Made by a program: the position numbers and the translations under genes
Notes under the pieces: model-generated
Databases searched by the model: none
What the model was told of the DNA's origin: nothing
What the model saw: only the letters and a program-made list of their open reading frames with translations
Origin: an uncultured Candidatus Saccharibacteria bacterium
GTDB lineage: Bacteria > Patescibacteriota > Saccharimonadia > Saccharimonadales > EFPC-124
Length of the DNA: 64,000 nucleotides
Reading direction: 5' to 3'
NCBI GenBank assembly: GCA_965225085.1
Contig: CBDDBE010000001.1
Span: 1,641-65,640, forward strand
Shown: positions 41,551 through 47,255 of the stretch, piece after piece
Layout of the letters: the number at the start of each line of letters is the position of its first letter
Position numbering within the stretch: position 1 is the stretch's first letter

Positions 41551-42183
41551 ATGCGATACGTCATTGGGTTCAGCTTTGCTGCGCTGGCTATTTGGGTGGT
41601 TCAAACAACCGGCATTCTGACGGCTTTGCTTGTATTTGTCGCAGTCGGCTCAGTACCGGGCACCGCCATCACCGTATCACCCCATGTAATGCTAATCTCG
41701 CTTGCCATAATGACGGTAGCAGTTGGGTTCTGGATCAAACGCATACAGTTCTCTCACCGCATGCAAAACATTGAGCAAAAGCAAACTCGCCAAGCAAATG
41801 AGAGCTCCAAGCCTGCAATATTTGCCGCGGTCTATGCCCGAGCATTCGCTACCGCACGCCAGGTGGCCAGCATAAGCAAAGGTCGTGCCGCTGCAGGGCT
41901 CCGACGCTTATCCGACACAAGCAACAAGGCGTTAGCTACTATCACTGCCGCGCTCCGAGCAGCAGCCAAAAGAATTTTCGACTGGGCGCGCCCTCGTCTA
42001 AATCAGTTGGCGCGGCAGGTCATCTACTCAGCAAAAGGCACAATACTCTCAGCCCACAAATGGAGCTCGCTCAGCAAAAAAGCCTGGGCGTCAGTCGCCC
42101 CTTTGCTGAGCCGCTGTAGTTCGCTGCTGAAACGTGGCAGGTCATTTGCGATGCGCGATGCACGCAAGTCTTCCCAAGCTTGA
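41551..42183 (+). CDS. hypothetical membrane protein (3' 160 nt overlaps the convergent sbcB)
   Basis: SD gaggtgg. Two N-terminal TMs, then a basic Ala/Ser/Arg-rich tail. Confidence 0.5.
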   Translation: MRYVIGFSFAALAIWVVQTTGILTALLVFVAVGSVPGTAITVSPHVMLISLAIMTVAVGFWIKRIQFSHRMQNIEQKQTRQANESSKPAIFAAVYARAFATARQVASISKGRAAAGLRRLSDTSNKALATITAALRAAAKRIFDWARPRLNQLARQVIYSAKGTILSAHKWSSLSKKAWASVAPLLSRCSSLLKRGRSFAMRDARKSSQA

Positions 42184-43445
42184 CGCTCATCTTGACTCAA
42201 ACTCTGGGGATAATTGCGCGCCTTGTACCTGAGCAATAACGCTGCAAGTCGTTCGTCGCCAAATTCAGGGCGGAAATCCTTCAGCCCACCCGAATCGGCG
42301 GCTCGTACGGCGCTCATCTTGATCTTATCGCCGTCGCCTACAAACCCGTTGTACAGCGCGGCATCGACGTCCTTGGCTTTGGGAAATGCCGCACCACGCG
42401 CAAATACATCGCGAAACCTATCCATCAAGGCAGAATTACGCACCAGCGCCGAAAGGTGCTTCTCGACTGTAGCAATAGTTAGCCCTATGCGCGCCTGCGC
42501 CGCCTCGTCCAATACGCCTATCGGCGCGACAGCCGGGCACTTGTTGGGGCTCAACTCCTTGACCGGTAGCGGCATAAAACCATCAATCTGTCGGTCTTCC
42601 CACTTGGCAAAACGAATCTTTTTCAAATCATCGAGCGATTTGTCGGTCCAATTCGACGGGTCTGCCGACAAATCATACACCAGCACCGACCCGGGCTTGC
42701 TGCCAGGCCCAATTGGCAAGGCTACTGTCGTGTGCAGTCGATTCTTGGGGTATCGGCCCGAGCTATAGACAAACGGCTTAGGATCATCGAGGTTAACAAG
42801 TTTAGCAACCTCTTTTTTATCCCGCATCTTGCACAGGTAGTCGAACAGTTGTGGCTGCTTGATCTTGATCAGCTTCGCCACGCCAATTAGGGCCACCACG
42901 TCGCTGAGCGCGTCGTGCGCTTGCTCGTGGTCAAGGCCATTAACGGCAGATAATTTCTCTAACCGGTTCATCGGTTGCCCGTTCTCATCAAATGGCCACT
43001 CAATGCCGTCCGGCCGAAGCGCACGCGTCATCCGTACCACATCCAGCATGTCCCAACGCGAGCGATCGTCTCGCCAGCTCCACTCATACGGATCGTGGAA
43101 GTTCCGGTACAGCGTATACCGCATAAATTCATCGTCGAACCGAACGCTATTGAAGCCCAGGATAGTCGTACCCGGCGTAAAGACTTGCTCGAATAGCAGT
43201 CGGCTAAAATCTGCCTCACTGTAGCCTTCGTCCCGAGTCTTCTGAGGCGTAATGCCGGTCAGCACTATCGCGGCTGGATCAGGCAGAACCTCGTCAGTCA
43301 GGGCAACCAGCACGTTGATAGGATCACCTATCGGATTCATATCCATATCAGTACGCTGACCGGCAAATTGCATAATGCGCTGCGATTTGGGATCAAACCC
43401 GGACGTTTCGAGGTCGTAAAAAAAGAATGTAGGTTGGCTATTCAC
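42024..43445 (-). CDS. sbcB: exodeoxyribonuclease I
   Basis: FFFYDLETSGFDPKSQRIMQFAGQR (DEDDh Exo I motif), HDALSDV; 473 aa; GTG start. Confidence 0.9.
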   Translation of the reverse strand: MNSQPTFFFYDLETSGFDPKSQRIMQFAGQRTDMDMNPIGDPINVLVALTDEVLPDPAAIVLTGITPQKTRDEGYSEADFSRLLFEQVFTPGTTILGFNSVRFDDEFMRYTLYRNFHDPYEWSWRDDRSRWDMLDVVRMTRALRPDGIEWPFDENGQPMNRLEKLSAVNGLDHEQAHDALSDVVALIGVAKLIKIKQPQLFDYLCKMRDKKEVAKLVNLDDPKPFVYSSGRYPKNRLHTTVALPIGPGSKPGSVLVYDLSADPSNWTDKSLDDLKKIRFAKWEDRQIDGFMPLPVKELSPNKCPAVAPIGVLDEAAQARIGLTIATVEKHLSALVRNSALMDRFRDVFARGAAFPKAKDVDAALYNGFVGDGDKIKMSAVRAADSGGLKDFRPEFGDERLAALLLRYKARNYPQSLSQDERQAWEDLRASRIANDLPRFSSELQRLSKGATDAQAFLLSELHLWAESIVPFAE

Positions 43446-43509
43446 TCCACCAGTGTAGCGTACTCTGGGCGGAAATTAAAAAATGCCCCATACAGGACAA
43501 CATGATTCT

Positions 43510-43820
43510 TGAAAAGTTGAATGCCCGGCAGCTCACCTCAGATGAGGAGGCTGCCGGGCTTAAGTGGTGAAGGTCTACGCCCATGCGTCTCGTCAGACGT
43601 TATCGGGTCGAAGTCTCGTCACCGGCATTAGGAACACGCATGCAGTACTGCAACAGGAAGGGGCATTTTGCCCCAGAACCAACCGATGCGGCATGAAGCC
43701 GCCGATCCCTGAAGCCATCATGAACGGTTTATAGCCGCCCTTAGGCTTATTAAAGCGAACCCTTGCTAGCAACCTACGTTGCTACCGTGCAGCACGCAGA
43801 CCCGAAGGTGCTAACGTGAC
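43510..43820 (-). ncRNA. candidate structured ncRNA A (~310 nt), class unassigned
   Basis: Minus-strand promoter TTGACT(43855-43850)-17-TATTAT(43832-43827). No ORF of 60 aa or more. Many local hairpins (GGGGCAAAAUGCCCC, GCAGUACUGC, UAGCAAC/GUUGCUA, GCGGC/GCCGC, CGUCU/AGACG). An 8-bp pairing, GGUCUGCG/CGUAGACC, links the 5' and 3' ends. A terminator hairpin lies at 43523-43559 followed by CTTTTC. Confidence 0.4.
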
Positions 43821-43909
43821 TTTTGTATAATAATGCATTTATGAAATAAAGTCAAGTATTTTTGTATATTTTCGCACATATTCCTCCCAAATCAGGGGTC
43901 AGCTTACTT

Positions 43910-44136
43910 CACAAAAGTAAAAGGGCCCGGCAAATCTCATAAAAATGAGAGATGCCGGGCCGTAACGGGCAGGTGTCGCAGGCGATCAGCCTCGTCAGGC
44001 GTATGCCCATTTGCGAACACGCAACCCGTCTCCCCCAGGGAGGCCCGTCCCACCAGCGGGCGTGTGGTTTGCTTGTAGCGACAGCCATGAGGCCGTCTGA
44101 ATCGACAAGGACCCGCCCGAGCACGATCGCGCTCGG
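43910..44136 (-). ncRNA. candidate structured ncRNA B (~230 nt), rod-like fold (6S-like?), class unassigned
   Basis: Minus-strand TTGACT(44189-44184)-17-TAGTAT(44166-44161) and an extended -10 TGGTATAAT (44151-44143). Long-range pairings CGGGCGGG/CCUGCCCG, UGUCG/CGACA, ACACGC/GCGUGU and CUCCC/GGGAG form an irregular rod. Terminator at 43924-43961 followed by CTTTTACTTTTG. Confidence 0.4.
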
Positions 44137-44223
44137 TGCGTTATTATACCACTAGAATAGATACTATAACGCAAATTTGATAAAGTCAAGACTTTCTAAT
44201 ACATTTCGAAGAATATACAACTA

Positions 44224-45579
<1,356 letters not shown>

Positions 45580-45620: not shown

Positions 45621-46100
45621 GTGCCCGACACAGATGTCACGATCGAGGTCTTCGCGGCGAACGCGCACCTAAGCCCGGAGTTCATAAGGGCACTTGGTGC
45701 TACCACGGACGACCAGTCAAAACTCGTCTACAAGGGAACGATGTTTCACATCGTGCGCGAAGGCGGACAGATCAGCGCCGCCAAGGTGATCCTCGCCGGC
45801 GCCAACGCCGCTCTGCCTCCCGTCTTCGAGGACGAGCTGAGGGTGAACTTCGTGGTTCTGCGCAGTACTGTTCCGGCGGATATCCAAGCCGCAACTGGCT
45901 GGTACGTTGGAGCGAACTTTGGGCTCCCGGGCGCCGCTTGCTGCATTGACCCGAAGGGCGAAAGGAACCAGGGCGTGCCCCAGATCTACGCCAATGGCGA
46001 TGATTTCGCCTCCGTCGTTACACTGTTCCTGAGCGTCATGGAAGGTCGCATGACACCCGGCGACGAGAACGACAGATGGAGTGGAACCGTCCGACGCTGA
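45621..46100 (+). CDS. hypothetical protein
   Basis: GTG start 6 nt after SD aaggagag, 159 aa. No family recognised; followed by two hairpins. Confidence 0.5.
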   Translation: MPDTDVTIEVFAANAHLSPEFIRALGATTDDQSKLVYKGTMFHIVREGGQISAAKVILAGANAALPPVFEDELRVNFVVLRSTVPADIQAATGWYVGANFGLPGAACCIDPKGERNQGVPQIYANGDDFASVVTLFLSVMEGRMTPGDENDRWSGTVRR

Positions 46101-46174: not shown

Positions 46175-46215
46175 CAATACAGTCTGCGAAATTCACTGCA
46201 GGCTGTATTGTTTTT
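46175..46215. terminator. rho-independent terminator between convergent genes
   Basis: caatacag-t-ctgc ... gcag-g-ctgtattg followed by TTTTT. Confidence 0.6.
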
Positions 46216-46232: not shown

Positions 46233-47255
46233 CTAATGAATGTAGTTATAGCTACCCGCCGACGAAGCTGAAACATCACGGGTCGAGATGATGTTCCATC
46301 CTACCCAGTTCATATCCGTAACCGACAAACTGCCGTCGCCATTGACCCGCTCTACAATGCCTACGTGGCCATAGCCACCCCAGCCCCCGCCGTTCTGGAT
46401 GACGGCGCCAACCTCGGGCGTATGGTCTACGCGGAAGCCAGCAGCACGCGCCATGACAGCCCAACTCACGGCATTGCCCCAGTTACCGCCGATCGGACGA
46501 CCAATCTCGGCGCGACGGTTGTAGGCATAGTACGTACAGTAGCCGTAAGCGTATCCGTTACCGGAAACAAGCGGAATAGACAGCGACGTTGCAACCGCAT
46601 TTGCAGAGCTAGCCGCGTAGGTACGTGGTGCAACGTATCCAGGACGTTCGCTCTCGGGCAAGATGCCATCAGGAATAATGATCTGCTGACCAGTCTTTAA
46701 GCCTGTTAGTTCTGCGTCGTTAAAGGTGATAATACGATCTTTATCGGCCTGATATTTGCTGGCAAGCGAATCGGCGTTATCGCCATTCTTGACCGTGTAG
46801 AGCACACCTGTAACGCTTGGGATCTGCAAGGTTGCGCCAGGGGTAAGCGAATCCGAAGTAAGCTTGTTGGCCCATCGAATGGTATCTTCGGAGATGCCAA
46901 GCGCAGCGGCAACTGACTTGACATTGTCGCCAGATTTAACGGTATAGGTAGACACGCCTTTACGGCCGGTGGTCTGGCTGACAATTTGAGGTTTGCTGAT
47001 GAAGGTATTGTCGGCCTGCGCCAGGTCAGTCTTGCTGTTGAGTGAAATTGCAAGGCTTGCAACGTTGGCGCTTACCAGCATGTCGGTGTTTTGCGCCGCA
47101 GACACTGCGACATCGGCCGCTGCGATCTGGTCAACACTGGGAGAAGCCTGCTCCAAAATGGACGAACTACTGGATTGGCTAGCCTCGACAGGCGCTCGGT
47201 AGCCAATCGCGACAATCGCGACAATAAACGCCACAACAACAATCTGCGACGTCAC
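46233..47255 (-). CDS. LysM (x2) plus CHAP domain peptidoglycan hydrolase
   Basis: Two LysM repeats (YTVKSGDNVKSVAAALGISEDTIRWANKL; YTVKNGDNADSLASKYQADKDRIITFND). C-terminal CHAP (YGYCTYYAYNRRA...GHVGIVERV). The GTG start at 47255 is the first canonical start, but the frame stays open to 47426. Confidence 0.85.
   Translation of the reverse strand: MTSQIVVVAFIVAIVAIGYRAPVEASQSSSSSILEQASPSVDQIAAADVAVSAAQNTDMLVSANVASLAISLNSKTDLAQADNTFISKPQIVSQTTGRKGVSTYTVKSGDNVKSVAAALGISEDTIRWANKLTSDSLTPGATLQIPSVTGVLYTVKNGDNADSLASKYQADKDRIITFNDAELTGLKTGQQIIIPDGILPESERPGYVAPRTYAASSANAVATSLSIPLVSGNGYAYGYCTYYAYNRRAEIGRPIGGNWGNAVSWAVMARAAGFRVDHTPEVGAVIQNGGGWGGYGHVGIVERVNGDGSLSVTDMNWVGWNIISTRDVSASSAGSYNYIH

Follow-up and report, generated by a model that had tools for sequence, protein, structure and literature searches.

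The question raised by this locus is what lies between the gene for the GTPase ObgE (obg) and an exonuclease I gene (sbcB-like, 42024-43445) of an uncultured Candidatus Saccharibacteria bacterium. The gap between the two genes (43446-44223, 778 nt) is the largest internal non-coding stretch of the 64,000-nt piece of DNA that we analysed (the window), in which long non-coding gaps are rare. An earlier interpretation made from the letters alone (the sequence-only reading) had placed directly behind obg a separate non-coding RNA of ~230 nt with an end-to-end rod fold of the 6S or Ms1 type, and had counted it as one of two such units in tandem. The gap does hold two tandem units on the same strand, B (43905-44190) followed by A (~43505-43860), and A too has a putative promoter and terminator of its own. 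We therefore ask below what B is, and whether it may be a 6S-type RNA.

Results

Genomic setting

The source genome belongs to the Saccharimonadales (Saccharibacteria/TM7), and all close Obg relatives come from metagenome-assembled genomes (MAGs) of the same order. Read along the minus strand, a LysM/CHAP protein gene (46233-47255) is followed by obg and then, past the 778-nt gap, by the exonuclease I gene; Table 1 lists the features of the locus. A small terminator-like hairpin together with the sbcB promoter and the GTG start (43443..43499) forms the downstream edge of what is a variable slot. The sbcB gene is apparently leaderless, with a conserved -10 (TACACT) 6 nt ahead of the GTG start in the window (43443-43457, minus strand) and at the same site in relatives, and several accessory ORFs in relatives start 8-9 nt past a -10.

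Other elements were observed around the gap. The plus strand, opposite to these genes, carries a GC-rich orphan ORF of 159 aa (45621-46100) in the space that separates obg from lysM. The ORF is equipped with a Shine-Dalgarno motif (aaggag), its terminator is at 46175-46210, and Pfam has no family for it; its identity is only 37-48% in relatives that reach 74-78% in Obg. A candidate lysM-TM7 RNA (RF03005; 47412-47555, minus strand) stands upstream of the LysM/CHAP gene and follows an 11/12 promoter at 47642-47614; a related locus has a copy that reaches full score (L005:2736-2842). Between the B terminator and the start of A, overlapping the A promoter, there is a 22-codon ORF (MCENIQKYLTLFHKCIIIQKSR; 43811-43892, minus strand) with a strong Shine-Dalgarno motif (GGGAGGA) 4 nt ahead of its ATG and a poor codon score (-0.53). 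This is probably a chance ORF, which any read-through of the B terminator would translate.

Table 1. Features of the obg-sbcB region of the window, and positions of the large slot RNA in related loci (L numbers)
Feature	Position	Strand	Description and basis
obg (GTPase ObgE)	44224..45561	-	without terminator between its stop codon and B
Putative promoter P1 of B	44161..44189	-	-35 TTGACT (44189-44184), 17-nt spacer, -10 TAGTAT (44166-44161); 9/12 match
Putative promoter P2 of B	44143..44151	-	extended -10 TGGTATAAT; predicted start near 44137
5' clamp hairpin of B	44114..44140	-	CCGAGCGC-GAUC-GUGCUCGG, extended; MFE and centroid; starts within a few nt of the predicted 5' end
Hairpin 2 of B	44066..44113	-	GGU.CUUGU...ACGGCCU-CAUG-GGCUGU...ACAAG...ACC; MFE and centroid folding
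Hairpin 3 of B	44043..44061	-	GCCCGCU-GGUG-GG.ACGGGC; MFE and centroid folding
Hairpin 4 of B	44030..44042	-	CUCCC-UGG-GGGAG; pair probabilities 0.98-1.0
Hairpin 5 of B	43966..44029	-	long, irregular; apex GCCU-GACG-AGGC inside ACGCCUGACGAG (43991-44002); folding; blocks TGCGTGTTC and CTGACGAG common to A
Intrinsic terminator of B	43912..43962	-	9 bp + 6 bp hairpin (43962-43924), then CUUUUACUUUUG; inverted repeat; first terminator after obg
Tandem unit A	43505..43860	-	promoter TTGACT-17-TATTAT (43855-43827, 10/12), ~300-nt body, terminator hairpin 43559-43523
Small terminator-like hairpin	43499-43484	-	upstream of sbcB promoter
sbcB promoter	43457-43452	-	-10 TACACT; kept in relatives; GTG start at 43445
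Large slot RNA	L201:4848-5506		
Large slot RNA	L203:1956-2604		
Large slot RNA	L002:5881-6599		
Large slot RNA	L035:4884-5609		
Large slot RNA	L205:4937-5647		
Large slot RNA	L206:4395-5073		
Large slot RNA	L029:4379-5451		
Large slot RNA	L034:2864-3481		
Large slot RNA	L032:4370-5059		
Large slot RNA	L001:5849-6703		

Promoters and terminator of B

As seen in Table 1, two putative promoters precede B. The -35/-10 pair that the sequence-only reading had reported (P1) was recovered; it begins 35 nt past the obg stop codon, and a promoter-like -35/-10 pair is found ~30-60 nt past the obg stop in every related insert-bearing locus examined. The extended -10 that it had placed closer to B (P2) was likewise recovered, and its signature TGNTATAAT occurs 7 times in the 64-kb window as compared to 0.94 ± 0.95 times in shuffles (~7-fold enriched). 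According to the ORF map of the window, each of the remaining six copies has an ORF on its own strand 9-61 nt downstream, and 9 of the 12 -35/-10 sites that match at 10/12 or better fall within the non-coding 15% of the window. Since the signature is enriched, its copies stand upstream of ORFs and the -35/-10 matches are mostly non-coding, the organism is seen from its sequence to use sigma-70-type signals, and B carries a predicted promoter typical of it. Transcription of B would start at the extended -10 promoter, near 44137, and probably also at the upstream -35/-10 pair, near 44154.

The terminator described earlier at the other end of B was confirmed as well: its arms (43924-43940 and 43945-43961) are 17 nt long, 88% complementary and followed by CTTTTACTTTTG, giving a GC-rich hairpin of 15 bp plus a U-tract. 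With a predicted 3' end near 43915 at this strong intrinsic terminator, B would be an RNA of ~226-240 nt. Because there is no terminator from the obg stop codon to that of B, obg transcripts must, as predicted from these signals, pass through B, and the B terminator would also end them. B would thus serve as the 3' UTR of obg and at the same time be a unit in its own right. MicL and DapZ of enterobacteria are examples of sRNAs embedded in a 3' UTR, with their own promoter and with the terminator of the mRNA shared. Like them, B lies directly behind a same-strand coding gene, has its own putative promoter and holds the sole terminator available to the upstream mRNA; unlike them, its promoters come after the stop codon and not within the CDS, and it is not conserved in the loci searched.

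This arrangement also brings in a competing explanation, namely that B is not a separate gene but only the 3' UTR and terminator of obg, or a functionless relic left by an accessory cassette since replaced, with promoter-like sites that are idle or that give a transcript without function. The sequence-only reading had itself considered that the region might simply be the obg 3' UTR; the first half of this stands, as obg has no terminator of its own, and the word "simply" probably does not, as B has its own putative promoter. We consider this explanation unlikely. The missing obg terminator speaks for it, whereas the fact that TGNTATAAT is used elsewhere in the window only as a real promoter, and the rarity of long non-coding gaps in the window, speak against it. 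Further evidence on both sides is given below.

Coding potential and composition

Five ORFs of 38-71 aa were found in B and A. For codon usage they score between -0.07 and -0.21; the reference, 60-codon pieces of real genes that had been held out, scores 0.32 ± 0.16, and its lowest value is -0.14. A Pfam search gave no match. The sole long ORF in B is a 71-aa frame, so that B might be the mRNA of a small Cys-containing protein, encoded by a 59-71-aa frame from 44124 or 44089 to 43909. Several relatives do encode a small protein directly after obg, in a gene that has a 5' hairpin, but the codon score of the frame in B (-0.20) is below that of every 60-codon piece of a real gene, the frame has no Shine-Dalgarno motif, and the predicted 5' end is without a start codon. 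The frame also crosses the terminator hairpin and reaches its stop only past the U-tract, so terminated transcripts would be without a stop codon. A search of the 71-aa frame against 5.8 billion proteins (also meant to catch spurious ORF calls over homologous DNA) returned no match, and with no homologue in Pfam or in this database we regard a small-protein mRNA as highly improbable.

Two related readings were tried and rejected. Leaderless starts are frequent in the clade, and B was considered as a leaderless mRNA, but neither of its predicted 5' ends has a start codon. B was also considered as a pseudogene of the small protein that relatives encode after obg (unit 1, see below); the HMM of this protein found no remnant in the six frames of the gap, which counts against the relic explanation too.

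ARAGORN and TRF detected no tRNA, tmRNA or tandem repeats. The GC content of the B body is 0.659 as compared to 0.55 in the window, with AT-rich signals on both sides. High GC within a long intergenic region commonly signals a structured RNA. The GC-rich body (0.66), the AT-rich signals that bracket it and the clamp hairpin at its 5' end look organised rather than decayed, contrary to what a relic would suggest.

Predicted fold of B and the 6S/Ms1 reading

The MFE and centroid structures of B are alike: both consist of five local hairpins followed by the terminator (-115.6 kcal/mol), the hairpins being a 5' clamp, three short GC-rich ones and a long irregular one (Table 1), and neither is an end-to-end rod. 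The whole unit has a folding z-score of -6.67, the 176-nt body without the terminator one of -2.9, and the core from which the 5' hairpin is removed too one of -2.0; much of the whole-unit value is owed to the clamp hairpin and the terminator, and the core value of only -2.0 fits the 3'-UTR or relic explanation. In the predicted fold almost all bases of B are in hairpins, and the longest accessible stretch is ~8 nt. We also looked at CUGACGAG as a possible hammerhead ribozyme (CUGANGA ... GAAA core, three helices and a match to an Rfam model); there is no GAAA after the stem that follows CUGACGA, the core is incomplete, and Rfam gives no match at E<=10, so this reading was rejected.

Could B instead be an RNA of the 6S/Ms1 type, i.e. 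a long irregular rod with a central bubble that mimics an open promoter and sequesters the RNA polymerase holoenzyme? B resembles 6S RNA (RF00013) and Ms1 in size (~180-230 nt; ~185 nt ahead of the terminator in B), in its strong putative promoter of the housekeeping type, in its high GC and structure, and in having complementary segments that nest from end to end. The six pairs of complementary strings listed by the sequence-only reading are all present and can nest, leaving a central loop of 23 x 23 nt. Our literature search found no 6S RNA in Saccharibacteria, so the niche may be open.

The rod itself fares worse. With the six helices enforced, the best structure has -65.9 kcal/mol as compared to -85.8 kcal/mol for the MFE structure, and the ensemble probability is <=0.002 for all of the six helices except the apical CUCCC/GGGAG (hairpin 4), which is the sole one with ensemble support. 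The closing helix of the rod competes directly with the very stable 5' hairpin. We then forced a single-branch fold on the B body and on its dinucleotide shuffles: the best pure rod of the 176-nt body (-65.3 kcal/mol) is as stable as those of shuffles (-62.9 ± 5.4 kcal/mol, z = -0.43), and its distance from the MFE is larger than in shuffles (20.5 vs 10.9 ± 5.5). Only for the 156-nt core without the 5' hairpin is there a mild excess of rod stability (z = -2.2, reached in 3/100 shuffles), and even this rod is 6.9 kcal/mol above the MFE of the core. The end-to-end fold claimed earlier is thus ~20 kcal/mol worse than the five-hairpin structure and no better than expected from shuffles.

Covariance models agree. 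At gathering score, Rfam reports two tRNAs only for the whole window, and at E<=10 it reports only three junk matches, all on the terminator, for the 1.1-kb region; the 6S (RF00013) and Ms1 models, which the sequence-only reading had proposed to run, match in neither mode. The permissive mode did recover the sub-threshold lysM-TM7 copy nearby (54 bits against a gathering score of 61.5 bits, E = 3.6e-9 in a local Rfam search), so divergent Saccharibacteria RNAs are detectable in this way. Known 6S RNAs are conserved housekeeping genes, and in more than 30 related loci neither the syntenic slot nor the flanking sequence that was fetched contains B; that B is not kept in relatives counts against a core RNA such as 6S, which would be expected to be conserved. 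Without a covariance-model match, a favoured rod or conservation, and placed in an accessory hotspot (see below), B differs from these RNAs, and it is predicted not to act as an open-promoter mimic for RNA polymerase. We judge a 6S/Ms1 identity to be very improbable, and the 6S-like claim, being unsupported, can be set aside.

Conservation of B

The only other copies of B are in two Logan contigs of the same population; they are 100% identical to the window and thus carry no SNP information. The next-closest Obg is 78% identical. Using nhmmer with B or A as the query, we found nothing in 78 Obg-anchored loci from genomes and metagenomes, nor in six extra loci of the closest relatives (from Logan, JGI, ENA and NCBI). 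A blastn search of B and A against phages and plasmids gave only chance matches of 29-32 nt, and among the pattern scans of viral contigs, one pattern gave 120 chance matches without extended similarity and three stricter patterns gave zero. B is therefore an orphan as far as sequence searches go, confined to one lineage among the loci searched. Since no homologue turned up in these loci and collections, neither fold has covariation support and there is no evidence of selection on the RNA.

The tandem unit A and its relation to B

Unit A is presumably the first of the two RNA candidates of the sequence-only reading. Its body folds with z = -4.0, and A has no Rfam match, no homologue in the searched loci and no credible ORF. 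A and B share a series of collinear elements, CTTGACTTTAT, TGCGTGTTC, CTGACGAG and GCCCGGCA/TGCCGGGC. The first of these is an 11-mer that spans the -35 in both units; CTGACGAG lies inside ACGYCUGACGAG, where a GYCU-GACG-AGRC hairpin shows a compensatory U-A/C-G difference between A and B; and the terminator stems of both units are built on GCCCGGCA. The chain of collinear exact matches between B and A sums to 44 nt as compared to 19.7 ± 7.4 nt in shuffles, a value reached in 4/1000 shuffles (16/1000 if the promoter is left out; the two terminator arms are not independent). These similarities are suggestive of paralogy, i.e. of A and B as diverged tandem duplicates. We also tried pairing between B and A; the best intermolecular duplex (-25.9 kcal/mol) is like that of shuffles (-26.2 ± 1.8), and this candidate was rejected.

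PrrF1/PrrF2 and OmrA/OmrB are tandem paralogous sRNA genes that can be aligned along most of their length. As in these pairs, B and A are adjacent same-strand units, each with its own putative promoter and terminator; a promoter motif and some short internal blocks are common to both, and their terminator stems are similar. Unlike in these pairs, the similarity is weak (the 4/1000 level given above) and the lengths differ (~226 vs ~320 nt).

The obg-sbcB slot in relatives

The lysM-obg-sbcB synteny is conserved across the order, and the obg-sbcB gap varies from 9 to ~2000 nt: it is 9-85 nt in many Saccharimonadales and 500-2000 nt in others (loci L001-L048 and L201-L207). The inserts are diverse, each with its own promoter and terminator, and include unrelated small ORFs in distant relatives. 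The slot is an accessory hotspot, and the confinement of B to one lineage within such a hotspot speaks for an accessory role, perhaps even for none, and not for a core function like that of 6S RNA. A sequence unique to one genome in a hyper-variable slot is also what the 3'-UTR or relic explanation would lead one to expect.

Within the clade at 74-78% Obg identity, two kinds of insert occur in the slot, singly or together: a conserved orphan ORF that encodes 112-120 aa (unit 1) and a large RNA rich in GC (unit 2). The unit-1 ORF follows directly after obg (L001:5398-5733, L002:5422-5760, L031, L034, L035 and L205:4453-4803); its gene comes with a Shine-Dalgarno motif, a hairpin at the 5' end and a terminator of its own, and its protein carries the motifs ..LGVV.., VTDL(V/I)CW and FGP, matches no Pfam family and is missing from the window.

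The large slot RNA is ~620-700 nt long (more than 1 kb in L029) and was found in at least 11 distinct loci of sister Saccharimonadales (Table 1 gives positions). Its profile HMM finds loci outside the training set, at the same Obg distances, with E = 1e-54 to 1e-64. Indels of 1, 2 and 4 nt and substitutions without 3-nt periodicity show that it is non-coding; its folding z-score is -6.9, and 26 of 102 predicted pairs are compensatory in an alignment of six sequences, five of them within a closing helix of 13 bp (AAGCUAGGUAGA/UCUACCUAGCUU). The layout consists of a promoter, a small hairpin with U6-7 just past the start, the closing helix, a long P2 hairpin and a terminator. It belongs to no Rfam family and our literature search found no description of it; that it is a structured non-coding RNA is well supported. 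Only a few of the sampled members of the clade (the window genome, L031 and L204) are without the large RNA in the slot, and B and A occupy the slot only in the window genome.

Given the shared position, B together with A might be a strongly diverged or split counterpart of the large RNA, or its functional replacement. B and the large RNA have in common the slot, the strand, the promoter-plus-terminator layout and a GC-rich, hairpin-dense body; the signals are alike (one promoter right behind obg and another of the A-tract/TTG kind, with a terminator and the conserved sbcB promoter closing the series), and the two closest loci with the same neighbour genes (L201 and L203) hold only the large RNA in the slot. 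Accessory sequence nearby also evolves fast, as judged from the 159-aa ORF against Obg. Against this, no sequence similarity was detected: the profile HMM of the large RNA, which recognises members of its family at the same Obg distances, matches only the sbcB promoter in the gap, collinear k-mer chains are not above those of shuffles, and the window has none of the conserved blocks, no covarying 13-bp closing helix and no P2 hairpin. The window also has two units where these relatives have one. B and A as a diverged copy of the large RNA were accordingly rejected on the profile HMM and the k-mer chaining, and the broader counterpart explanation seems rather improbable to us. The same holds for a more far-reaching proposal, at present quite doubtful, in which the slot would serve soil Saccharimonadales as a locus reserved for large structured RNAs of an undescribed class, remodelled here into B and A, with B as a domain-level derivative or functional stand-in.

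Discussion

We lean, with some reserve, towards B as a lineage-specific orphan gene for a small non-coding RNA with its own promoter and terminator. The earlier proposal of a separate ~230-nt non-coding RNA behind obg thus holds in part: a putatively non-coding unit, separately promoted and bounded by a terminator, is retained, and the 6S/Ms1 rod is not. B and A, probably diverged duplicates, would together fill the obg-sbcB slot of this genome.

As to function, B may be a stable, abundant accessory RNA that acts in trans. If it is functional, the predicted fold, which leaves few bases unpaired and no accessible stretch longer than ~8 nt, gives a slight lean to a structure-based action such as protein binding or titration, which we find marginally the easier to believe; the step from pairing to function is a weak one, and seed-type antisense pairing has a chance a little short of even. 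A literature search found no RNA-level regulation described for the phylum.

Taken alone, B is one more orphan candidate sRNA, in an uncultured episymbiont, and it changes no concept. Its synteny led to the obg-sbcB hotspot, where the unannotated large RNA of the sister clade is a more valuable lead than B itself.
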